Source of the DNA: Candidatus Gastranaerophilales bacterium
GTDB lineage: Bacteria > Cyanobacteriota > Vampirovibrionia > Gastranaerophilales > Gastranaerophilaceae
Direction: 5' to 3'
DNA length: 64,000 bases
Assembly (NCBI GenBank): GCA_944325555.1
Contig: CALVAN010000006.1
Coordinates: 22,998 to 86,997 of the forward strand
How positions within the stretch are numbered: position 1 is the stretch's first letter; each line of letters starts with the position of its first letter. Positions 42,580 through 63,233 of this stretch are shown one piece after another. A model generated the notes under the pieces. It was not told the DNA's origin, did no database searches, and saw only the letters and a program-made list of their open reading frames with translations. The translations under genes and the position numbers were made by a program.

Positions 42580-44310
42580 ATGAAATTTGATAAAAAATTA
42601 TTAATATTTATAACTCTGCTTACATTGGCTGCGCTGGGATTAAGACTCATAAATATAAGCAATGCAGCCTTGTGGATAGATGAGCTTTATTGCTATGATA
42701 TTGCATTAAAACCGACTATTACGGAAATTTTAAAAACAGTATTTTTAACGGACCTGCACGCACCGTTGTTTTTTATAATTCTACATTTCTGGATAAAACT
42801 TTTAGGCAGCACAGATTGGGTACTAATATTACTGCCAGTGATTTTTTCAACACTCAGCGTGCCCGTCGGATATTTTATTTGCAAAAAACTTTTTGATACC
42901 AAAACAGCTGTCATTTTTTCCTTACTAAACACCTTCAGTGCTCTTGAAATTTACTATGCACAAGAGCTTAAATTCTATTCAATGCTGCCATTGCTGGGAT
43001 TGTTGAGTTTTTATTTTTTCTCAAAAATCACGCAAAATTTCAGCATAAAAGACACATTATTGCTTTTATTAACCAACACACTCATAATTTATACCTTTAA
43101 TGCAGGCATATTCTTTATAATTGCGGAATTTGCAGTCGGTTTGACATTTATACTCCTTAAGAAAAAAGAAAATTTAAAAAACTATCTATATTCTTTTATT
43201 TTTACAGGAATTTTATACATACCGTATTTTTACTTTCAAATAAAAACAATACAGGGCTTGAACAAAAGCATATGTACACTTTTTGACATGTTCCATTTTG
43301 ATTTGGGCTTTGTATTTACACTTATACAAAACTTTTTTACCCCGGCAATCACCAATTTGTCTAACAATCCTGTTAACTACAATCCGATTGAGATGCTTAA
43401 AACTACCGGTGCTCTCGGGTTTGTTTTTTACATAATTTTCTTTTGCGCAATTGCCTTTTATGGAATTTACAAGCCCATTAAAGATAAAAATCATAATGCA
43501 ATATTGATTTTTTCAGCCTCATTTTTATTTATTTTAATTTTAATATTTCTTGCAATTTTACACATTATCCCGCTTGTAACAAGATACACTCTGCTTGTTC
43601 ACTTAGCAATACTGGCTGTTATTGCCTGCGGAATTGTACAAATCAACAACAAAAAAATCCTTTACACAATAATGTCATTGACTGCGTTGATTTCTTTATT
43701 CAGTTATGCTTTTTACAAAGATTCGCCGCTCAAACGTAATTCGTCCTTCCACTATTATAGCGCCCAAGCTCTGCAAAAAGCCGGTGCCAGTGATAGTGAT
43801 ATGATAATAATGCCATATTTTGGCAGATTTTTATACAAATATTTTGACAAAGGACAGCTTATTGACTACAGAAGCGAAGAATTGCTGCTTTTGAACGATG
43901 CATTTTTAATGAAAGAAACCTTCAAACTTACTCAAGAAGAATACCAAAATAAAGATAAAAGCGGACTAAAACTTCAAAAATACATAGAAAACCCCAACCC
44001 ACCAGAAGAACTTGAAAGATACTTCCAAAAAAACTATCTTTCAAAACTCCGTAAAGGGCAAAAGCTCTATCTGGTTGAAAATTACAGTATTTACATAATA
44101 CCTGATGAACTTTATATACCCATGTTAAAAGGTATTAATATAGACAAACCCAACCTTAGCGAACTTGAAAAAAACGCTCGTTATGCACTACTATATACCA
44201 AAATATTAAAAAACCTTGAACTCATTTTTTCTAAAAATCTCACACCGGTTAAGATTTACCATTCCCAAAACCAAGATGTAAAAATTTTTGAATTTATAAA
44301 AGAAAATTAG
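42580..44310 (+). CDS. GT-C fold glycosyltransferase (family 39 / ArnT / PMT-like)
   Basis: 576 aa. There are about 11 N-terminal TM segments, with the first-loop acidic motif ALWIDELYCYD. A soluble C-terminal domain follows. Confidence 0.6.
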   Translation: MKFDKKLLIFITLLTLAALGLRLINISNAALWIDELYCYDIALKPTITEILKTVFLTDLHAPLFFIILHFWIKLLGSTDWVLILLPVIFSTLSVPVGYFICKKLFDTKTAVIFSLLNTFSALEIYYAQELKFYSMLPLLGLLSFYFFSKITQNFSIKDTLLLLLTNTLIIYTFNAGIFFIIAEFAVGLTFILLKKKENLKNYLYSFIFTGILYIPYFYFQIKTIQGLNKSICTLFDMFHFDLGFVFTLIQNFFTPAITNLSNNPVNYNPIEMLKTTGALGFVFYIIFFCAIAFYGIYKPIKDKNHNAILIFSASFLFILILIFLAILHIIPLVTRYTLLVHLAILAVIACGIVQINNKKILYTIMSLTALISLFSYAFYKDSPLKRNSSFHYYSAQALQKAGASDSDMIIMPYFGRFLYKYFDKGQLIDYRSEELLLLNDAFLMKETFKLTQEEYQNKDKSGLKLQKYIENPNPPEELERYFQKNYLSKLRKGQKLYLVENYSIYIIPDELYIPMLKGINIDKPNLSELEKNARYALLYTKILKNLELIFSKNLTPVKIYHSQNQDVKIFEFIKEN

Positions 44311-53290: not shown

Positions 53291-53842
53291 TCAGATTCTT
53301 TTGTGCATGCTGCCGATAGAAGATGTTCCTGAAGAGGAATTGCTCGTGCTGCTGCCAAGGAGTTTGTTTAAAAGGTCATCACCGTTATTTGCGGCTTTTC
53401 TGTAGGTGTCGGCATAAATACCCGTGCCTATATCCGTTTTGTCTTCACCTTTTTTAAGACCCTGCAAACGAAGCTGTCCCGCTTTGATGACTTTGTCGAG
53501 AGTTGTAAAGTCAATGTCCGACATATTGTAGTGGTTGTACAGTGCAAAAAACTTGATTGACTGAGCCTCTGCAATCATTGCTTCGATGGCGGAGCGGTTT
53601 TTAGTTGCGATGTTTGAAATATCAAGGTTTGCCAGCCTCTGGCGCAATACGTCAGTGTTTTCGTTTTTCAAACGCTGAAAATTCTCCTGCTCCTGCTGAG
53701 CCATACGGATACGATACTCTTCGGGAGTTTCTGTAACCTTGCGGATATTTCTTGCGCTTTCTAAAGCCTCATCTCTTTGCTTTTGCATATCTTTTGAAAA
53801 CGGCGAGGTAATATACGCATCGATGTTCATTTCGTCCGACAT
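53291..53842 (-). CDS. Orphan 183-aa protein, helical, Ser-rich C-terminus
   Basis: The ORF is followed downstream by the hairpin CCGCCATAC...GTATGGCGG (53139-53169). No family recognised. Confidence 0.55.
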   Translation of the reverse strand: MSDEMNIDAYITSPFSKDMQKQRDEALESARNIRKVTETPEEYRIRMAQQEQENFQRLKNENTDVLRQRLANLDISNIATKNRSAIEAMIAEAQSIKFFALYNHYNMSDIDFTTLDKVIKAGQLRLQGLKKGEDKTDIGTGIYADTYRKAANNGDDLLNKLLGSSTSNSSSGTSSIGSMHKRI

Positions 53843-54044: not shown

Positions 54045-54171
54045 ATCCCCTCACCCTACCCCTCTCCCCCGGAGAGGGAACAAAAAAAATAATATAGACA
54101 AGCTAAAGTTTGCACAAAACCCGCTTTACAATCCCCACCCTCACCCTTCCCTTCTCCCCCGGAGAGGGAAC
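54045..54171 (+). repeat. Two copies of a C-rich box ending in the hairpin CCCTCTCC-CCC-GGAGAGGG (54045-54081, 54131-54171)
   Basis: ATCCCCTCACCCTACCCCTCTCCCCCGGAGAGGGAAC and ATCCCCACCCTCACCCTTCCCTTCTCCCCCGGAGAGGGAAC. The second stem has one T-G pair on the plus strand. Confidence 0.85.
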
Positions 54172-54213: not shown

Positions 54214-56064
54214 TTAGATCCATTCCTCAATTTCTTTTTTAGATACTCCCCATTCATGCCCGAAGGTTCTGCCCTTTACGTTGCAATATTTACAAAACGG
54301 TATGGGTTTAGCTAAAAAGGCAAGAATTTCTGCCATAGATTTTACTTTGTATATATCTATATAATTTCTGTCATCAATAATCATATTTTCTTTAAAATAT
54401 TTGTTAAAGTGATGTGCATTAGCCGCAGGAGAGCACGTATATATTTTGCCATCATGGATACCAATACACTGGTTTGCATGAAAACAATTAATAAAATTTT
54501 CTCTTGGGTCTTGCAATCCTTTTACATCAAAAGGTATATGATAACTTGTTTTTATTACGTCTGCGTTGTTGAAAAATGTAAAATTTACTCCATATTTAAG
54601 AGCAGTATTTTTTATTTTGTCATAATCTACTTTTATCGGATATTTTGTACAGGTAACCAGAATATCTAGCTTTTGCAAGAGATTCCAAAACTTTTCATCT
54701 TTGTCTTGTAACAAAATACCATTTGATTGAAGTCTTATTGTTGAATCGGGAAAATATTTTCTGGCAACTTCAAACATTTCTAAAATGTTTGGATTCATCA
54801 ACGCTTCACCGCCTGAAAGACTTATTTGTTTTAAATTGCCGTTTGTTAATTCTGCTAACCTTTTTATATCATTTGAAAAAGATTCAAGTGTAACAAATCT
54901 TTCTTCGGCAATTGGAGAACACACATCACAACACTTACAGTTTAGGTTGCAGTGATCAACAAGATGAAATCCTATACTGTCAAGATATGGACGAGGTGTA
55001 ATTCTTTTGATTTTTGCGTCAAAAATTGCCTCTTTATTTTGAATTAATTTTTCTATTCTATCAAATTTTGATTTTTTCCTTTTTAGTTTTATCTTTACAC
55101 CCAGTATTTTGTATGTTCTGTGTTTGTCGTCTTTTTCGTAGTTATATAAATTTTTTAACATAATTGACCCATACCTCTTTGTGCTATAAATAAAATATTT
55201 TTTTAATATCAAATTATAAAAACAAGATTTTTTAGCGTATTTCCACCAGTAATTTGCAAATACACACTGTTTATCCTGCCATGGTTTTATTTTGTCCGCA
55301 TAATGAATTATCAGTGGTTTTAAAATAGCCTCGGTCACAATGTCTTTACCAAATAAACCACATAATTTTTCGTATTCAGGTAATGTATTATCTAAAATAC
55401 TTTTGTATTTAGTCATCACATTATATTTGAACGGCAAATGCTTTATATTGTTATAAAAGACCTTGTTTATTACATCTTGATCTACAGTCGGATAATTTTT
55501 CAATGCTTCTTCACACAATACGGGGGTAAGATTATTTTCCCTTATTTTTTGCAGGTTCAAAACAATAACTCCGGCATTAATATACTGGTCTATTGAGGGT
55601 ATGCCAATTTTTTCGCAATAACTTTTTCCAGCTGCTTGTGAAAAATGATATGCTGGTGCTTTTACTCCTGCAACATAATTATCATCCAAATCAATAATAT
55701 ACAGTTGCGATAAATCACAGTTAACAATAGTATCCGTATCAAGATAGACACATTTGTCATATTTATCCGGTAATATTTCAGCGGCTCTTAATCTGTAATA
55801 CGTCTGCTCTGTGATATGAGAAACCATTTTTTTAGTTTGAGAAAAGGCATTTTGCATATTAACAAAATTGATTTGTTTATTGCTATAAAAAGTGCAGTCT
55901 TTTTCTATTTTAGTTTTGTATTCTTCTTTAAAATCATTCGGGACAAGCAGATAAAAATCAAAATACTGATTCGACTTTGCATTTTTGAGTATAGATATCA
56001 TTAATACGCTCATATACGGTGCATAATTATTATCTGCAGCAAGTATTACAGGAATTGTCACCAT
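54214..56064 (-). CDS. Fusion protein: GT8 glycosyltransferase (N) + radical SAM enzyme with C-terminal Cys-rich (SPASM/twitch-like) region (C)
   Basis: N-terminus: VILAADNNYAPYMSVLMISILKN, YLDTDTIV, NAGVIVLNL (GT8). C-terminus: FHLVDHCNLNCKCCD (CX3CX2C, aa 372-379; nt 54928-54951), ISLSGGEALMNP (GGE motif), and later C527, C533, C544, C591/C594. Confidence 0.8.
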   Translation of the reverse strand: MVTIPVILAADNNYAPYMSVLMISILKNAKSNQYFDFYLLVPNDFKEEYKTKIEKDCTFYSNKQINFVNMQNAFSQTKKMVSHITEQTYYRLRAAEILPDKYDKCVYLDTDTIVNCDLSQLYIIDLDDNYVAGVKAPAYHFSQAAGKSYCEKIGIPSIDQYINAGVIVLNLQKIRENNLTPVLCEEALKNYPTVDQDVINKVFYNNIKHLPFKYNVMTKYKSILDNTLPEYEKLCGLFGKDIVTEAILKPLIIHYADKIKPWQDKQCVFANYWWKYAKKSCFYNLILKKYFIYSTKRYGSIMLKNLYNYEKDDKHRTYKILGVKIKLKRKKSKFDRIEKLIQNKEAIFDAKIKRITPRPYLDSIGFHLVDHCNLNCKCCDVCSPIAEERFVTLESFSNDIKRLAELTNGNLKQISLSGGEALMNPNILEMFEVARKYFPDSTIRLQSNGILLQDKDEKFWNLLQKLDILVTCTKYPIKVDYDKIKNTALKYGVNFTFFNNADVIKTSYHIPFDVKGLQDPRENFINCFHANQCIGIHDGKIYTCSPAANAHHFNKYFKENMIIDDRNYIDIYKVKSMAEILAFLAKPIPFCKYCNVKGRTFGHEWGVSKKEIEEWI

Positions 56065-56069
56065 TTTAT

Positions 56070-56852
56070 TTAGACTCCTCTTTTAAATTTCACTTTTGCG
56101 CCAAGTATTCTTAGTACTTTATGGTTATTTTCGTTTTTTATGGAAAATATATTTTGCTTAAATTCTTCTTTTGCTCGTTTTTTATCAATTATCAATTTAG
56201 CATCTTGCAATGATTCGGTATTAGTTATTCTCGCATAATTGTTATCTTCAGAATATTTTAATAATACTTTTTCAATGAATATCGGTTTCTCTTTTTTTGT
56301 ATATCTGAGTATCAAATCCCAATCAACCAATCTTTTTAAATTTGTGTCAAATTTGCCATACTTTAAAATTAAAGATTTATTATGCACAAAGACACCAAGA
56401 TCAATAAAATTTGCGTTTTGTAATTGTTCATAATTAAAGGGGTGACCTATAATCCGACCGTCAGTTCTTAACAACCGGCTATAAAAGATTGTATTTTTAG
56501 GGTTTTTAATTATTGTTTTTTGGAATGTTTCCAAAAAATCGGGCAGCATTTCATTATCGCTGTCAAGATAACCTATCCAATTATTATATGCCGATTTCAA
56601 CCCTACATTTCTTGCATTACATACACCCTTATTTTGTTTCAATTTTTTATATACTATCTTTTTTGTGTGTAATTCCTTCACATATTTTTCTTTTATCAAT
56701 TTTTCGGTATCATCAGTTGAACCGTCGTCAACAATAATTAATTCAAAATCCTGATATGTCTGCTTTAATAATGAGTCTATGGCATTTTGAATACAAAAAG
56801 CTCTGTTATATGTCGCCATTATTATTGAAAATTTCACGCTTCTACTAAACAT
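56070..56852 (-). CDS. GT2 family glycosyltransferase
   Basis: FSIIMATYNRAFCIQNAIDSLLKQTYQDFELIIVDDGSTDDT and a YLDSDN (DxD-type) motif. The C-terminal tail is IFSIKNENNHKVLRILGAKVKFKRGV. Confidence 0.85.
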   Translation of the reverse strand: MFSRSVKFSIIMATYNRAFCIQNAIDSLLKQTYQDFELIIVDDGSTDDTEKLIKEKYVKELHTKKIVYKKLKQNKGVCNARNVGLKSAYNNWIGYLDSDNEMLPDFLETFQKTIIKNPKNTIFYSRLLRTDGRIIGHPFNYEQLQNANFIDLGVFVHNKSLILKYGKFDTNLKRLVDWDLILRYTKKEKPIFIEKVLLKYSEDNNYARITNTESLQDAKLIIDKKRAKEEFKQNIFSIKNENNHKVLRILGAKVKFKRGV

Positions 56853-56877: not shown

Positions 56878-59262
56878 TTATAAATACTTCTTTTTTATCA
56901 ATAAGTCAGCATTTTCCTTTTTCAGATACAGTTCACAAGGGTCAAAATCCACTTTTATTTCGGGATAAAATGAGGCTTGTTTAAAACCTTTTGATAAAAT
57001 TAACTTACTTAATCCCATTTCATAATTAAAAATTATGTCCTCTTTTATTTTTTCTTTTTTTATATTGTTAACAAACCGGTCAAACCAATCATTTTTGAAA
57101 ATATTTTTAGAAAATGAAACAAAATAACTTTGAATATGCGGCGCATATCCCCAACCGTATTCGACTTGATTTTTGTGATTTTTGATAAATCCAAATAAAT
57201 GTTGTGTTACTCCATAAAAATCTTTTTGTTTTAATTCATTAAAAACTTGTTCCAAACTATTACCGACAAACACAACACTATCATTGATAAATAATAAATT
57301 GTTTATATCATTTAGTATTCCCATATTTTTTAATAGAGAATAACCTCTTTTGTATGAACCGAAATCATATTCATCGTGTTTTTTAAAAATTATTGCATCA
57401 ACAAGGTTTTTAACTTTGTCTGATTCTTCCGGTATAATAGGGTGATCAGCAGATAAAACAATATATCCTGCATATTTGCGTAACTCAGTAAGATATTTAA
57501 TCAAATTATCATCTAAAATTGCATTATTATTATGCATTGCAAATACAACTGCATTTTTGTTACTTTTGATTTCTGAATTAAATACTTCAGTTATTTTTTG
57601 AGCACGTTTTGGATATTTTTGTTTACGTTTTGGCACCAGTCTGTATTTATAACCAAGAACAGTAATAATCTTGAATGATTTATAGTAAGAATTTTTTATT
57701 GAAAAAATCTTCTTTAAAAAAGCTTTAAAAGAATTTATCAGTTCTTGTTTTACATCTCTAACACCATAAATATTCATCCCCTGCATTTCAATTATTGTTC
57801 CTAACAAGCGTTCCAGAGCATGAATCGGTGTAGCAGTTATACTTGTTTCAGGATTATTAACAAAAAAATAGTTTTCATCAAAATCCAAATTTTTTAATAA
57901 TTCAAATAATGAAGCTTTGCATAAAAACATTGTTCCTGCTATAAAATTCCCTTTTAAATTTGGTAAATTTAATTTTTGGCACACTTCATCATATATAAGT
58001 ATATCTTTTGGAGGATGGTTTTTAGATAACGACATTTTGCAGTAGTTAGCACCAATCATACCTGTATTTGGATGATTTTTAAAATATTTTAAACAATTAA
58101 AAAAATGATGTTTGGAGCTTAACACAGCGTTAACAAGAGTATCTCTCCAACCAAATTTCTTTTGCCATTTTGTACATTGCGGATTATTTTGGTAGGCTTT
58201 AGTATGCAGTTTAAGAATATAATCATATTTTTTTAAATCCACCATTTTTAGAACTTGAATAAATGGCATAATATCAAATCCGTGATTAGTTACTTTGATA
58301 AATATCGTATCCGATTTCAGATTTAAAATTTTGTTTTTCATTTCTTCATTTTCTTCTGTATAAGTGACATATAAATCCCACATACAATGATTTATATTAC
58401 TTAATTTTTTAATCCAAAAATCAATTTGTTCATGATAATACAAATGGAAATGTACAAGAACTCTTGGTTTTGGGAAAATTTTCATATAGTATTTAATACC
58501 AAGAATAGTAATTATTTTATGTATTCCGTCATCCGAGTTACGTATAGAAAAAATTTTTTCTGTAAAACTAATTTTCTTTCTGTATAAACAGTGCTTTTTA
58601 AAATTATTGTCAATTTTTGCATAATTATACAGATCAGATTCTTTTATTTTCTTAAATGCAGAATCTTGAGAAGATAGAGAAGTTAAGTGTTTGACATTTC
58701 CACCGATAATTTCATAATTTATTTTTTTTGCGTCATTGTTTTTTTTCATCAAATAATTGTCGCCACACCAGATTTTTAAATTTTGAGGAATGTTATAATA
58801 ATTTTCTTTTTTACCAAATATGGCAGATCCCCAATACCTGCTGTATAAAGTGTATTTATAAGGTTTAAACTTTAGATTTTTATTTTGAGGATATGTATTA
58901 AATTCTTCCAGAGGAGTATTATGTACAATAGTAGAATCTAAACCTACCAACCCTATATTCTCATTGCTTTTTATAAATTCATATACCTGAGAACAAAAAT
59001 TTTGCGGTAGTATAATATCGTCATTTAATATACCAAAGTAATTATTCTGAATGTTGTTTATTCCAAGATTCCACGCTGCATTAACATATAAATTTTCATA
59101 TGGAATTATTACTTTTACTTTTGGAGAAGCAAAAACATAACCCTTTAATGAATTATCAATAATAACAATCTCGTTAATCACATCGTCGTCAACAAGTTCA
59201 TTAACAAGTTTGTTTAATACCTCAATATTTTTTTGTATAGTTGGTATAACTATTGATAACAT
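56878..59262 (-). CDS. Three-module glycosyltransferase-like protein (GT2-like N-module + two modules resembling rhamnan-synthesis-protein-F/RgpF halves)
   Basis: aa 1-230: SIVIPT....EIVIIDNS. aa 265-515: VLVHFHLYYHEQIDFWIKKLSNI...DLYVT...AGTMFLCKASLF (RgpF-like as I recall the family). aa 550-794: AVVFAMHNNN...YDFGSYKRGY...FINDSV. The modules are separated by two copies of the FSI(K/R)N...ILG.KY motif. Confidence 0.55.
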   Translation of the reverse strand: MLSIVIPTIQKNIEVLNKLVNELVDDDVINEIVIIDNSLKGYVFASPKVKVIIPYENLYVNAAWNLGINNIQNNYFGILNDDIILPQNFCSQVYEFIKSNENIGLVGLDSTIVHNTPLEEFNTYPQNKNLKFKPYKYTLYSRYWGSAIFGKKENYYNIPQNLKIWCGDNYLMKKNNDAKKINYEIIGGNVKHLTSLSSQDSAFKKIKESDLYNYAKIDNNFKKHCLYRKKISFTEKIFSIRNSDDGIHKIITILGIKYYMKIFPKPRVLVHFHLYYHEQIDFWIKKLSNINHCMWDLYVTYTEENEEMKNKILNLKSDTIFIKVTNHGFDIMPFIQVLKMVDLKKYDYILKLHTKAYQNNPQCTKWQKKFGWRDTLVNAVLSSKHHFFNCLKYFKNHPNTGMIGANYCKMSLSKNHPPKDILIYDEVCQKLNLPNLKGNFIAGTMFLCKASLFELLKNLDFDENYFFVNNPETSITATPIHALERLLGTIIEMQGMNIYGVRDVKQELINSFKAFLKKIFSIKNSYYKSFKIITVLGYKYRLVPKRKQKYPKRAQKITEVFNSEIKSNKNAVVFAMHNNNAILDDNLIKYLTELRKYAGYIVLSADHPIIPEESDKVKNLVDAIIFKKHDEYDFGSYKRGYSLLKNMGILNDINNLLFINDSVVFVGNSLEQVFNELKQKDFYGVTQHLFGFIKNHKNQVEYGWGYAPHIQSYFVSFSKNIFKNDWFDRFVNNIKKEKIKEDIIFNYEMGLSKLILSKGFKQASFYPEIKVDFDPCELYLKKENADLLIKKKYL

Positions 59263-60311
59263 TCAAACTTATCTCCTTGTAATATATTTTTTCTTTTCAC
59301 AACAAACCTTTTCCCGAACACCACATACGTTTTATCTGTTTCCGTAGTTCTAATATCGAACACATCAAAAAACTTTTTGTGGTGATATTTGAACAAAATC
59401 AAATTCAACTTTCGGAAGTTACACATTTTTCGCTGCTCTGATTTTGTGAATGAATTTTTTATAAAATTCAAAAAGTCCGAAATATCCTTTTCGTACTGTT
59501 TTTTCAGCCCTTCGTCCGAACTTTTGCGCCAGTAATATATACAACCGCCTATAAAATGGTTCGTAGAGGCTATTTTCATCTGTCTTGACTGCTTTTTGTA
59601 TATTTCAGATTCTACTAATGCCTTGTATGCAGCAAAGTCATTTCTTATACAATTGGCAAATTTTTTGGTTGCCGCACCTTCTCTGTCATCACGGTAGTTG
59701 TACAATGTTTCTAAAATAAATGAATATTTTGGATTTTGATAAAATGTTTTAAGACAAAATACTAAATCTTCTGCATTTTTTATTCCCAATGGAAAATTTA
59801 TTTTATTTTTTTCTAAAAAATCTCTTTTAAACGCCTTGTTCCAAATATAAATCTGTATTTTTATTGTTTCTTTTAAAACATTATAATTTTCAATAAAATT
59901 TTTGATTTCTTTTAATGAACTAAAACCATCAATAATTTTTGTATTATTAACTGTTTTATATCCCCACATAATTATGTCGGAGTTTTCGGTATTTATTTTT
60001 TTAGAAACTTTTTCACATAGTGTCAAATCGTATGTATCATCAGGGTCAAGAAACATTATATATTCGCCGCGGGCGGTTTCAAGCCCTGCATTTCTTGCTG
60101 AGGATACTCCTTGATTATGCTGATTTATAAGTTTAATTCTCGAGTCTTTTTGAACGAAATTTTCAAGAATAGCAAGTGAATTATCAGTAGAACCATCGTT
60201 AATGCAAATGATTTCTATATCTGCAAAGGTTTGGTTTATTACACTTTCTATTGCAGCAGCAAGATAATTTTCTACATTATAAACGGGCATAATCACGGAT
60301 ATTTTAGGCAT
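59250..60311 (-). CDS. GT2 family glycosyltransferase
   Basis: ISVIMPVYNVENYLAAAIESVINQTFADIEIICINDGSTDNS and FLDPDD. I prefer the ATG at 60311. It overlaps the XRE gene stop by 8 nt (ATGCCTAA) and the next gene's start by 13 nt. Confidence 0.88.
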   Translation of the reverse strand: MPKISVIMPVYNVENYLAAAIESVINQTFADIEIICINDGSTDNSLAILENFVQKDSRIKLINQHNQGVSSARNAGLETARGEYIMFLDPDDTYDLTLCEKVSKKINTENSDIIMWGYKTVNNTKIIDGFSSLKEIKNFIENYNVLKETIKIQIYIWNKAFKRDFLEKNKINFPLGIKNAEDLVFCLKTFYQNPKYSFILETLYNYRDDREGAATKKFANCIRNDFAAYKALVESEIYKKQSRQMKIASTNHFIGGCIYYWRKSSDEGLKKQYEKDISDFLNFIKNSFTKSEQRKMCNFRKLNLILFKYHHKKFFDVFDIRTTETDKTYVVFGKRFVVKRKNILQGDKFECYQ

Positions 60312-60651
60312 AATTTTCTCCGTTATCCTGCACAATTGCCTTTAGCAACTTATACGAAAGCATCAGCTCCTGCGTATTCATTTTTTTAAGGAGCTGCAAT
60401 ATTTGCACTTCGCCGGTTCTGGGGGTGTATTTTTGCAGCGTTTTCAGCTCTTCTATCTCAAAATCCAGAACCTTTGAAATGTTCAAATACGTAGAAAGTT
60501 TAGGGATATATGTTCCGTCCTCTAACTTGCCGATATGGCGGGTGCTCAGCCCGACGAGTTTTGCCAGCTGCGCCTGCGTAAGCCCTTTTTGTCTTCGATA
60601 ATCTTTTATCAAAACTCCCAGTGATTTACTCAAGTTTTTTTCCGAAATCAT
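60304..60651 (-). CDS. XRE-family HTH regulator, first gene of the glycosyltransferase operon
   Basis: LIKDYRRQKGLTQAQLAKLVGLSTRHIGKLEDG is a classic Cro/CI-type HTH. The ATG at 60651 is preceded by GGGAAAG. The track start at 60654 is TTG. Confidence 0.8.
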   Translation of the reverse strand: MISEKNLSKSLGVLIKDYRRQKGLTQAQLAKLVGLSTRHIGKLEDGTYIPKLSTYLNISKVLDFEIEELKTLQKYTPRTGEVQILQLLKKMNTQELMLSYKLLKAIVQDNGENYA

Positions 60652-60674
60652 CAATTATCTTTCCCGTCTGTTAC

Positions 60675-60822: not shown

Positions 60823-61137
60823 ATGAATAATAAGCAATTACTAGGAAAAAGAATTAAAGAATTAAGAAAAGCGGCAAACCTCACGCAAGAAAGGCTTGCC
60901 GAACTTATTGATATCGAAACAGGCTCGCTCAGCGGAATTGAAAGCGGCAGACATTTTCCTTCTCTTACAACTCTGGAAAAAATTGCAAATCATCTTGACG
61001 TGGAATTAAAAACCCTCTTCGACTTCAAACACCTTATCTCCGTTGAAGAAATGAAAGCTTCTATAATTCAAAATATAGACAAAATCGACCGTGAGCAAAT
61101 TACTTTTATTTACAAATTTGTGGAAAACTTTAAATAA
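60823..61137 (+). CDS. XRE-family HTH regulator (divergent from the operon-leading XRE)
   Basis: LGKRIKELRKAANLTQERLAELIDIETGSLSGIESGRHFPSLTTLEKIANHL is a Cro/CI-type HTH. Confidence 0.8.
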   Translation: MNNKQLLGKRIKELRKAANLTQERLAELIDIETGSLSGIESGRHFPSLTTLEKIANHLDVELKTLFDFKHLISVEEMKASIIQNIDKIDREQITFIYKFVENFK

Positions 61138-61150
61138 TTTTTAGCGCAGG

Positions 61151-61738
61151 CTATCTTGCATAAATATCTTCTTTTTTAACGGCAAGATCCTCAGGCGCAT
61201 AATTTTTTAAATATTCTACCGCCTCTTGAGCGGTGTCCGCAAGAAAATACAGTTTTTGAGCTTTTTTGTTGGCAAACTTTTGATTAATAATTTCCTCAAA
61301 AAAATCCAAAAGTTTGTTATAAAAACCGTTTGTATTAAGTATAACAATCGCCTTTTGATTGTAGCCAAGCTGTTTTTGCACAATCATCTCGCTTAATTCC
61401 TCAAGCGTGCCAAACCCGCCGGGCAGAGCAACCAAAGCGTCGGATAGCTCGTCCATTTTTGCTTTCCTGCTTCTCATACAGGGGGTTAAGTAAAATTCAT
61501 CGCAATAATCCGAAAAAACATCCATTTCATGCAATTTTTGCGGCATCACTCCGATAATTCTGCCGCCGTTTTCCTTCACCTTCTGCGCACACGCCCACAT
61601 CAAACCAAGACAGCTTCCTCCGTAAACCATATCCATATCAGCACCGGCAAGCAGTGTACCCAGTTCTTTGGCAGCCTCGTAGTATGTTTCGTCCAAATAA
61701 TTACATGATGAAGCAAATACGCATACGGTGTTTATCAT
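61151..61738 (-). CDS. LOG family protein (TIGR00730; cytokinin riboside 5'-monophosphate phosphoribohydrolase-like)
   Basis: VYGGS..GLM........NGG..IGVMP and LPGGFGTLEELSE motifs. Confidence 0.88.
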   Translation of the reverse strand: MINTVCVFASSCNYLDETYYEAAKELGTLLAGADMDMVYGGSCLGLMWACAQKVKENGGRIIGVMPQKLHEMDVFSDYCDEFYLTPCMRSRKAKMDELSDALVALPGGFGTLEELSEMIVQKQLGYNQKAIVILNTNGFYNKLLDFFEEIINQKFANKKAQKLYFLADTAQEAVEYLKNYAPEDLAVKKEDIYAR

Positions 61739-61796
61739 CTCAATAACCTTTCAAAAAATACTGGTGATTAAACTCATCATAGCATATAATTATCTT

Positions 61797-63233
61797 ATGC
61801 CGGAAAAAATAAAGACAAATATTTATTATATTACGGTTGCACTGCTGCTGGCGGCAGGCATTATATTGAGGATTTTGTTTTACGCATACGGCCGCCCTTT
61901 TTGGAATGACGAATCCGCACTTGCAATAAACCTTGCCGGCAAAAGTTTCTGGGAACTGTTTCAGCCTCTTGTGCATGAACAAGTTACGCCGCCGTTGTAT
62001 GCCGTTTTATGCAAATTTTGCGGCTTGTTTACGGACAAAGCGGAATACGCTTACAGACTCCCTTCTCTTATTTGCGGAATTGCTTCATTGCCGCTGTTTT
62101 TGGCATTTGCAGAAAAAACGTTAAACAATAAAATCGGCAAAATCTTTGCAACAGCGCTTTTTGCTTTGAACTATCAACTGATATACTATTCGCAGGAGTT
62201 AAAACAGTATTCCTGCGACGTTTTGCTGTTTTTAGGGGTTTTAGTTTCATATTTTTATATTGACAGAAAGAAATTCGACAGAAAATTGTTTGTGCTTATC
62301 GGTTTGTTTTATGCAGTTTCGATATGGTTTTCATATACGTCATTGTTTGCAATGTTTGTTGTCTTCCTTTTATGCTTTATAAGAAAAGAAAAGGCTCTTA
62401 CAATTTTCGGCATACCTGCGTTATCCTTCGGCGTTTTTTTGTTTTACATAAAAAATTATGCAACAAGCGAAGCCCTGCACAATTTTTGGGACAACGGCTT
62501 TATTGCCTTGAATTTTTCAAACTTCCCGCTGCTGATATTCAACAACATTGTCTTTTATTTTCCGGATTTCAGCTGGAGAATTTTTGTTGTGCTGATGTTT
62601 GCTGCGGGGCTGATTTATACATTAAAATACATAAAATACAACGAGAATATTATTCTTTTAACTCCCGTTCTTCTTGCGGTTCTGCTTTCTTACCTGCATA
62701 TTTACCCGATGTATATAAGGACAGCACTGTATCTTCTGCCGGTTGTGTTTTTGATTATGGCAAAGACTTTTGAACCAAGCTTTTTCTATAAAAAAGAAGG
62801 CAAAATTATTGCGGGTATTCTTGCATTATTTTTTGCAGCATACACTTTTAAAACCGATTTTACGCAGATTTTGCAAAAAAAATATTACAGAGAAACCACC
62901 CCTGAACTATTACAGCTGTATAAAAGAGAAGCAAAAAACACCGATATTCTTATTGTACCGCATTTGACGGCAATAAATTATGAATATTACGTCCAAAGGA
63001 CTTCTCTGCCGGCGTGGAATGCCATTGTTATAACCCCTGAACTTTACGAATACGATAAGGTCAAAGAGATTTACAACACATTGCCTTCTGGCTCTTATTA
63101 TGTTTTGTTCACGCATTCGGGTGACAAAAATCTGGAATTTGAAAGTCTTAAAAAATACGCACTGTCACAAAAAAATCCTAAAATTTCATCGGATGAATAT
63201 AATAATGCGCTGATTTATTTTCAAAAGCAGTAA
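61797..63233 (+). CDS. GT-C fold glycosyltransferase (family 39 / ArnT / PMT-like), second copy in window
   Basis: A polytopic N-terminus with the first-loop motif PFWNDESALAIN, and a soluble C-terminal domain. I prefer the ATG at 61797 over the track start 61728, which would overlap the LOG gene. Confidence 0.6.
   Translation: MPEKIKTNIYYITVALLLAAGIILRILFYAYGRPFWNDESALAINLAGKSFWELFQPLVHEQVTPPLYAVLCKFCGLFTDKAEYAYRLPSLICGIASLPLFLAFAEKTLNNKIGKIFATALFALNYQLIYYSQELKQYSCDVLLFLGVLVSYFYIDRKKFDRKLFVLIGLFYAVSIWFSYTSLFAMFVVFLLCFIRKEKALTIFGIPALSFGVFLFYIKNYATSEALHNFWDNGFIALNFSNFPLLIFNNIVFYFPDFSWRIFVVLMFAAGLIYTLKYIKYNENIILLTPVLLAVLLSYLHIYPMYIRTALYLLPVVFLIMAKTFEPSFFYKKEGKIIAGILALFFAAYTFKTDFTQILQKKYYRETTPELLQLYKREAKNTDILIVPHLTAINYEYYVQRTSLPAWNAIVITPELYEYDKVKEIYNTLPSGSYYVLFTHSGDKNLEFESLKKYALSQKNPKISSDEYNNALIYFQKQ

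Follow-up and report, generated by a model that had tools for sequence, protein, structure and literature searches.

In the usual view, rare sugars of bacterial surface glycans arise while the sugar is still bound to a nucleotide, and the polymer-level epimerases known so far act only on uronic acids, via carbanion chemistry. Post-attachment editing of a sugar by a radical S-adenosylmethionine (SAM) enzyme is so far known only from two Streptomyces aminoglycoside pathways. Among radical SAM enzymes with a twitch extension, SpeY (Protein Data Bank (PDB) entries 7wzv, 7wzx and 7x0b) is a dehydrogenase of spectinomycin biosynthesis, its homolog HygY is the 2″-epimerase of hygromycin B biosynthesis, and BtrN (4m7t) is the 2-deoxy-scyllo-inosamine dehydrogenase of butirosin biosynthesis. 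In glycosyltransferase (GT) family GT8, WbbM (6u4b) is a bifunctional polymerase of Klebsiella O-antigen, made up of DUF4422/GT111 and GT8, and LgtC (1g9r, 1ss9) an alpha-1,4-galactosyltransferase. This report concerns a gene which joins these two kinds of enzyme in one protein, a GT8 followed by a twitch radical SAM enzyme. It was found in Candidatus Gastranaerophilales bacterium (assembly GCA_944325555.1, contig CALVAN010000006.1), in a stretch of 64,000 nucleotides that is referred to here as the window.

The fused open reading frame

The gene occupies positions 54214-56064 of the window on the minus strand, the strand of all features given below unless stated otherwise, and encodes 616 amino acids (aa), from an ATG at 56064 to a stop codon at 54214-54216 with no internal stop. 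As judged by open reading frame (ORF) calling, Pfam, homologs and a motif check, aa 1-299 correspond to an intact GT8 and aa 300-616 to a complete radical SAM enzyme. A preliminary description of this DNA had read a single 616-aa ORF containing two enzymes, and this was borne out, the ORF and both Pfam domains (PF01501 and PF04055, each above its cut-off) being found.

A search for full-length homologs covered 5.8 billion proteins, and GTDB species genomes were scanned separately. The former gave five clusters of full-length collinear homologs (99, 86, 69, 62, and 46% identity), which stem from differing samples and assemblers and whose linkers vary yet remain in frame, while the latter found the architecture also in two GTDB species (L007 and L022; L and P numbers are our own handles). 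The L007 protein is 615 aa in length and that of L022, with 1000 aa, matches the GT2 and GT8 query domains and has its radical SAM domain at the C-terminus. A frameshift at the junction, a possibility raised in the preliminary description, or a misassembly there is ruled out by these in-frame homologs from independent assemblies, and sequencing error is excluded because the same architecture is present both in independent assemblies and in GTDB genomes. A fusion produced by faulty assembly or sequencing, or a pseudogene in decay, with halves that are truly separate genes, might be read from the A-rich junction and from a Shine-Dalgarno-like AAGAGG with an ATG (Met302) at the ancestral start of the radical SAM module. 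Such an explanation is extremely improbable, as the frame is open here and throughout the five clusters, the linkers differ without losing it, and the catalytic motifs are intact in both halves. The ORF is a genuine uninterrupted fusion, and its product is very probably a real bifunctional protein in which a GT8 and a twitch radical SAM enzyme take part in glycan synthesis.

Pfam assigns aa 6-265 (55270-56049) to the GT8 catalytic domain (PF01501, a 253-position model; E-value 3.8e-38; score 131.9 bits, threshold 24.3), and a PDB search gives the GT8 domain of WbbM (6u4b, E-value 4e-28) and LgtC (E-value 3e-20) as its closest solved relatives, both of which use uridine diphosphate galactose (UDP-Gal). 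These two share DxD, DQD and H..KPW motifs with the GT8 half. YLDTDT (aa 107-112; 55729-55746), with D109 and D111, aligns with FIDSDT of WbbM and YLDIDV of LgtC, the latter being the DxD motif D103/D105; DxD is a metal and nucleotide-sugar motif. VDQDVIN (aa 194-200; 55465-55485), with D195, Q196 and D197, aligns with the D-Q189-D segment of LgtC, which is part of the active site. At the C-terminal end, the His/KPW motif HYADKIKPW (aa 254-262; 55279-55305), with H254, aligns with HYAGENKPW of WbbM and HYCGPAKPW of LgtC, the equivalent histidine of the latter being H244. With all motifs of retaining alpha-hexosyltransferases in place, the GT8 half looks catalytically competent. WbbM likewise has its GT8 as a module within a multidomain glycan-assembly protein; its partner is a second GT, whereas here it is a radical SAM enzyme. 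DUF4422 (PF14393), present in several GT8 relatives, has no Pfam match in the fusion protein.

The radical SAM family domain covers aa 341-616 (54217-55044) and consists of a partial triosephosphate isomerase (TIM) barrel and a twitch extension, as identified with AlphaFold2, Foldseek and profile searches. PF04055 (Radical_SAM) matches aa 370-464 (E-value 1.1e-9, 39.1 bits against a cut-off of 29.5) and Fer4_12 is also matched. Residue conservation was counted across 365 unique sequences of the family. The CX3CX2C motif (C372, C376 and C379, within CNLNCKCC at aa 372-379; 54928-54951) provides the predicted ligands of the SAM-binding [4Fe-4S] cluster and is Cys in 359-360 sequences. The remaining sequences have gaps there, apart from a single substitution at each of two of these positions, and C378 of the same segment is not conserved across the family. 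SGGEAL (aa 417-422; 54799-54816) is the GGE SAM-binding motif, with G418, G419 and E420 kept in 362-363 sequences. Further towards the C-terminus are the twitch segment C527-x5-C533-x10-C544 (54433-54486), of which alignments and conservation mark C527 and C544 as putative auxiliary ligands, and C591-x2-C594 (54283-54294), the putative third and fourth ligands of this auxiliary cluster, which are Cys in 363-364 sequences. Each of the four is Cys in at least 362 sequences (359-364 for all seven putative cluster cysteines, which like the GGE motif are at least 98% conserved), so that one fully Cys-ligated auxiliary cluster is possible. The radical SAM half, the C-terminal 317 residues, is a complete, formerly standalone twitch enzyme with two putative [4Fe-4S] sites.

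All of the motifs pointed out earlier, namely YLDTDT, CNLNCKCC, the GGE motif and the cysteines at 527, 533, 544, 591 and 594, are where the preliminary description had placed them. Its view of the additional cysteines as a SPASM/twitch-like region holds with regard to an auxiliary-cluster region of the twitch kind and not with regard to SPASM. The SPASM subclass was rejected given that there are four invariant C-terminal cysteines plus one near-invariant one and no seven-Cys motif; Pfam gives no SPASM match and the NCBIfam matches of SPASM type are confined to the N-terminal core, far below their cut-offs. A role as maturase of peptides, including ribosomally synthesised and post-translationally modified peptides (RiPPs), which weak NCBIfam matches to SkfB, PapB and the like might indicate, was also rejected, these matches again being limited to the N-terminal core and far below cut-off. 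The 25 families found most often directly beside the radical SAM genes include none related to peptides.

Predicted chemistry of the radical SAM half

The AlphaFold2 model of the radical SAM half was built on 58 homologs (predicted local distance difference test (pLDDT) 96.7) and matches only radical SAM structures. In the Foldseek search against the PDB, the top matches are the three SpeY entries (E-value 8.7e-14, template modelling (TM) score 0.71, 265 columns), followed by BtrN (E-value 2e-6, TM score 0.53) and then by MoaA, EpeE and anSME. The sequence profile agrees with the fold (7wzv, E-value 4.4e-19), making SpeY the best match by both routes. SpeY relatives and the radical SAM half share the CX3CX2C and GGE motifs, the two cysteines of the twitch hairpin and, at the C-terminus, a CxxC. 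SpeY and HygY, however, are standalone proteins of 302 aa from actinomycete antibiotic clusters, whereas the protein described here is fused to a GT and is encoded, in a gut anaerobe, within a surface-glycan island. Its radical SAM family includes none of the 44 SpeY relatives found at E-values of 1e-10 or below, and by this measure the radical SAM half is a distant homolog and not a member of the SpeY/HygY clade. BtrN is the second-best distinct protein of the fold search and has the same twitch architecture, with a four-Cys auxiliary cluster of similar spacing; it differs in being a much weaker structural match and a dehydrogenase acting on a free aminocyclitol. Since SpeY and BtrN both abstract hydrogen from the carbinol carbon of a sugar or cyclitol, a carbinol C-H of a carbohydrate is the probable substrate of the radical SAM half.

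One residue bears on the outcome of the reaction. C533 (codon at 54466-54468) is the putative hydrogen-atom donor and falls on a serine of SpeY in phmmer, profile and hmmalign alignments alike, with the following DGxxYxC serving as a gapless anchor. This serine is residue 203 of the 322-residue 7wzv chain; as the SpeY relatives are 302 aa in length, 20 residues of this chain are a tag, which makes the serine native Ser183. In 92% of the family the residue equivalent to C533 is Cys, most other members having L, T, Y or S, a pattern that fits a catalytic residue more than a cluster ligand. At the SpeY position, eleven residues ahead of the second auxiliary cysteine, Ser is found in the SpeY clade and Cys, in the same register, in more distant relatives, and the fusion protein has the Cys state. 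In the paper on SpeY, Ser183 is reportedly adjacent to C2′ of the substrate on the side opposite SAM, and the S183C change is said to turn SpeY into an epimerase. The title of a paper on HygY states the converse, that a single-cysteine mutation converts the epimerase to a dehydrogenase. With C533 at the Ser183/Cys183 position, the radical SAM half is predicted to be an epimerase of a sugar carbinol carbon, an outcome to which we would give about an even chance.

Oxidation of the carbinol carbon is less likely than epimerisation. In such a scheme, the radical SAM half would be a dehydrogenase resembling BtrN and SpeY, which oxidises a secondary alcohol of a sugar, the auxiliary cluster receiving the electron, with the resulting keto-sugar either being kept as such or being aminated or reduced by another enzyme. 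It draws on the two closest solved structures both being dehydrogenases, on the four invariant auxiliary cysteines, which could ligate the cluster fully in the arrangement of BtrN, on a family member fused to a short-chain dehydrogenase (P0350) and on the radical SAM genes of L004 and L006 adjoining aminotransferases. Nevertheless, this is unlikely, as C533, with its conservation across the family, sits where the dehydrogenase SpeY has Ser and the distant SpeY relatives have Cys, and no aminotransferase or reductase was found among the island ORFs scanned.

The reading that we prefer overall, although with no more than an even balance of confidence, is that the GT8 adds an alpha-hexose and that the radical SAM half then epimerises a carbinol carbon of the sugar in place. 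In this scheme the GT8, at the cytoplasmic face, would extend a surface glycan, built up by the products of the three preceding GT genes, with an alpha-linked hexose. The radical SAM domain would cleave SAM to give a 5′-deoxyadenosyl radical, which would abstract hydrogen from a C-H(OH) group of a sugar residue, most simply the newly added one; Cys533 would return a hydrogen atom to the opposite face, leaving the residue epimerised in place, and the auxiliary cluster would help to re-reduce the thiyl radical. A rare sugar configuration could be obtained in this manner without a dedicated nucleotide-sugar pathway. Such an order of events would be that of SpeY and HygY, which act on a sugar after its attachment by a glycosyltransferase, and it is the order that the fusion suggests.

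A number of points weigh against this proposal. Biochemistry was found for no member of the radical SAM family and the identity to SpeY in the structural alignment is only 18-20%, so that substrate and outcome are extrapolated from the fold and one aligned residue. SpeY and BtrN, the closest solved enzymes, are both dehydrogenases, and the role of Ser183/Cys183 as a switch between epimerase and dehydrogenase is the one reported for SpeY. The full-length model has no confident interface between the domains (predicted TM score (pTM) 0.57). The surroundings of the Helicobacter homologs are housekeeping genes (xseA, a NifS-like aminotransferase and glmS) and not GT clusters, so that not all members of the family need act on glycans. 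Finally, neither an initiating transferase nor a flippase or exporter is present among the ORFs scanned in and near the island, and the glycan may be an O-antigen, a capsule or a protein glycan.

What would be new here is a twitch radical SAM enzyme of the SpeY/HygY kind joined to a GT8 and recruited into surface-glycan assembly with the predicted chemistry, and we regard this claim as standing evenly between true and false. If true, radical SAM editing of a neutral sugar after its attachment would be a new source of glycan diversity, and radical epimerisation could explain unusual sugars in anaerobes that have no matching nucleotide-sugar pathway.

The radical SAM family and its coupling to glycosyltransferases

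When 1.84 billion representatives, clustered at 50% identity, were searched exhaustively with HMMER, 790 clusters of the radical SAM family were found at E-values of 1e-30 or below and 2352 at 1e-10 or below, most of them standalone proteins of approximately 300 aa. The family is spread across anaerobes and includes genes of Helicobacter, Campylobacter and Brachyspira, with standalone homologs in, for instance, Helicobacter rodentium, Campylobacter novaezeelandiae and Brachyspira intermedia. No NCBIfam model reaches its cut-off on the radical SAM half, database names are limited to "radical SAM protein" or "4Fe-4S cluster-binding domain-containing protein", and no description of the function of the family or of its fusion to GTs was found in the literature and curated models searched. 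For this orphan family of some 790 clusters, the GT8 fusion may serve as a Rosetta stone, pointing to the product of the GT as the likely substrate. In the Helicobacter homologs (L006, L048, L054, L070, L074, and L083), a long heptad-like segment is present at the N-terminus.

Fusions were counted among the 150 best family representatives, where 16 are GT fusions, consisting of at least 14 of GT2-radical SAM type, one GT17-like-radical SAM and one GT8-radical SAM. Other fusion partners among these representatives are a methyltransferase, the short-chain dehydrogenase of P0350 and a second radical SAM domain. The GT2 and GT17-like examples (such as P0242, P0247, and P0252), none of which is characterised, have the same radical SAM family at the C-terminus of the GT; the GT family differs, GT2 being inverting and GT8 retaining, and their origin is independent. 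By radical SAM domain identity, the nearest relatives of most fused members are standalone proteins. An example is the radical SAM module of P0005, which shares 91% identity with the standalone L012 from the linker motif on and 94% over the radical SAM domain columns, and the gene upstream of the latter is not a GT8. Because the fused members have standalone nearest relatives, fusion to a GT has taken place many times, and to a GT8 at least twice. The preliminary description knew of no described GT8-radical SAM fusion; the architecture is indeed rare and no named or characterised example was found, while a GT-radical SAM fusion as such is not unique.

The family is also linked to GTs by gene neighbourhood, its genes lying mostly beside GT genes; 80 GTDB loci were counted for this. 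Within four genes of the radical SAM gene are GT2 (28 loci), a second radical SAM paralog (10), a TupA-like ATP-grasp (8), an NDP-sugar epimerase/dehydratase (7), an ABC transporter (7) and a standalone GT8 (6, in 3 cases directly upstream). The immediate neighbors (n = 132) include GT2 (24), radical SAM (12), TupA (7), GT4 (4), GT1, GT8 and UDP-glucose dehydrogenase (3 each). A functional coupling of the radical SAM enzyme to glycosyl transfer is well supported by these genomic associations. The channelling that had been proposed in the preliminary description stands to this extent, the fusion being recurrent and the genes adjacent, and does not stand as physical channelling. In the full-length model both domains have a pLDDT above 90, with the linker at aa 300-340 between 56 and 68. 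A fixed inter-domain tunnel is not supported by two rigid domains on a low-confidence linker, and the coupling is probably by flexible tether, on which the fused enzymes would act by proximity.

Coupling leaves another order of reaction to be considered, in which the radical SAM half acts before transfer and converts UDP-Gal or UDP-Glc to an unusual donor that is then used by the fused GT8. Fusion and adjacency indicate coupling and not the order of steps, and an in-house modifier of the donor would be useful given that no nucleotide-sugar pathway genes were found among the island ORFs scanned. We consider this quite unlikely, since SpeY and HygY act on intermediates that are already glycosylated, and since the same type of radical SAM enzyme is fused to GTs of unlike fold and stereochemistry (GT2, GT8, GT17-like) and to methyltransferases, which fits tailoring of the product better. 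The closest GT8 relatives, from the same lineage (P0006-P0016 except P0009), are also relevant here. In these GT8-X fusions a GT8 at aa 1-300 (58-72% identical) is followed by a linker of the FSxKN type described below and by one domain of tailoring type, namely a pyruvyl transferase, a SAM methyltransferase or a TupA-like ATP-grasp, enzymes that typically tailor an assembled glycan. None of these fusions is characterised and their tailoring domains are non-radical; in the protein described here, the radical SAM domain fills the same slot.

A different radical reaction may also be envisaged, for example deoxygenation or dehydration, formation of a C-C or C-O cross-link, or contraction of a ring, with the glycan or a non-sugar substituent as its target. 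Radical SAM families less than 20% identical often differ in outcome, 8% of the family members do not have Cys533, and the second radical SAM paralog that neighbors the gene in 10 of the 80 loci hints at multi-step chemistry. Such a reaction seems improbable, as the fold match is specific to twitch enzymes that oxidise or epimerise carbinols (E-value 9e-14 as against 2e-6 or weaker), and B12-dependent methylation is made unlikely by the absence of any Pfam match to a cobalamin-binding domain in the fusion protein. The second paralog is more divergent (approximately 270-420 aa, typically approximately 370) and lies beside a family member in L032, L033, L036, L039, L050, L053, L055, L065, L080, and L081, some of these loci also having GT1, GT-D-like and polysaccharide-deacetylase-like genes. 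The pairing of paralogs suggests multi-step radical tailoring.

Returning to post-attachment epimerisation, its extension to a large SpeY-like twitch family which epimerises unactivated sugar carbons after glycosylation, in tight coupling with GTs and widely among gut anaerobes (Melainabacteria, Helicobacter, Campylobacter, Brachyspira, Bacteroidales, and Clostridia), is a tentative proposal, to which we give somewhat less than an even chance. The fusion suggests that rare sugars of bacterial surface coats can be made by radical chemistry after attachment.

The junction of the two halves has features of a former gene boundary. AAGAGG (55174-55179) is separated by a 12-nucleotide spacer from the ATG of Met302 (55159-55161), a probable relic (55159-55179) recognised from the sequence and from the alignment with P0121. 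This standalone protein (310 aa, 62% identical) is collinear with aa 300-616 and has Met302 as its third residue, so that AAGAGG and Met302 look like the scar of the fusion. In Brachyspira (L031), the GT8 and the family radical SAM enzyme are encoded by separate genes 12 nucleotides apart. Downstream of Met302 is the linker motif LYNYEKDDKHRTYKILGVKIKLKRKK (aa 306-331; 55072-55149), a degenerate copy of FSxKN..HKxITILGIK, and then a long helix ahead of the radical SAM core (aa 332-355, modelled as 333-355; 55000-55071), in place of which homologs have a longer heptad-like segment. The linker module is predicted by the model to be a three-strand beta-meander followed by this long helix. In SpeY relatives, the beta-meander/helix module was not noticed by eye, and no formal search for it was made.

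The module, of approximately 25 aa with the form FS(I/V)KN..HK(I/V)ITILGIK(I/F), is a recurring element of the GTs and radical SAM enzymes of these islands, placed where genes end or domains meet. Many standalone radical SAM homologs have it at residues 2-11 (usually 8), and it is also present at the domain boundaries of the GT8-X fusions and at the C-terminus of or inside the three upstream island GTs. Copies in the window are at 55072-55149, 56091-56147, 58489-58551, approximately 57640-57700 and approximately 59270-59340, and others were seen in P0004-P0015, P0121-P0261 and L012. It is not known to belong to a described family or to have an assigned function, and may serve in docking, oligomerisation or membrane association. 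As DNA, the copies in the window are only approximately 53% identical, which places the constraint at the protein level; a role as a DNA-level recombination joint is for the same reason not supported.

The genomic island

Four GT genes run in the same direction here, and the fusion gene closes the series. The first is a GT2 gene of 361 aa (59250-60335), which is followed by a 794-aa multidomain GT (56878-59262) with a GT2 domain, an RgpF-like domain and further C-terminal sequence, in which there are two internal FSxKN copies, and by a GT2 gene of 260 aa (56070-56852), whose product ends in FSIKN..ILGAKVKFK, 5 nucleotides before the start of the fusion gene. All three were assigned by Pfam. 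The left boundary of the island is a divergent pair of XRE-type helix-turn-helix regulators (60304-60654 on the minus strand and 60823-61137 on the plus strand), conserved in relatives, and the right boundary is a 183-aa ORF (53291-53842) with a Ser-rich C-terminus (SSTSNSSSGTSSIGS), likewise conserved in relatives and without a family match in Pfam. This ORF borders the island also in L001 and, with approximately 69% nucleotide identity, in L004/L008. The mean G+C content of the island is 28% compared with 35% for the window.

The genomes nearest to the window are gut metagenome-assembled genomes of Gastranaerophilales or Melainabacteria. The frame from the regulator pair to the 183-aa ORF recurs in related genomes with differing contents. 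In L001, whose shared parts are approximately 85% identical at the nucleotide level, the GT2 genes are different ones and the GT8-radical SAM gene is followed by an additional methyltransferase gene. The island of L004/L008, which are also Candidatus Gastranaerophilales, has two GT2 genes, a standalone radical SAM gene, a TupA ATP-grasp and an aminotransferase-HAD protein. The island shows modular exchange of cassettes, in which a GT8 is combined with a methyltransferase, a pyruvyl transferase, an ATP-grasp or a radical SAM enzyme, in a fixed genomic frame, and such exchange bears on how gut Melainabacteria evade phages and the immune system. In several Gastranaerophilales islands, the TupA-like ATP-grasp adjoins the radical SAM gene (L004, 10993-13887; L007, 5794-6882), accompanied in L004 by the aminotransferase-HAD fusion, a set that resembles the Campylobacter jejuni genes for the glucuronamide (serinol/ethanolamine) decoration of its capsule.

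Directly downstream of the fusion gene, a 370-nucleotide spacer contains two GC-rich palindromes of 34 nucleotides (core CTCCCCCGGAGAGGG; 54048-54081 and 54138-54171), 90 nucleotides apart and the sole copies in the window, for which an Rfam search gave nothing credible. In L001 the methyltransferase gene takes the place of this spacer, between the GT8-radical SAM gene and the 183-aa ORF, and the palindromes may mark the loss or exchange of a cassette. A scan of the island for promoters and terminators gave counts equal to those of shuffled sequence. Two large polytopic membrane proteins are encoded near the island on the plus strand (61728-63233 and 42580-44310), one with a weak PMT_2 (GT-C) match and one without a Pfam match, and these might be candidate periplasmic glycosyltransferases that use the product of the island.

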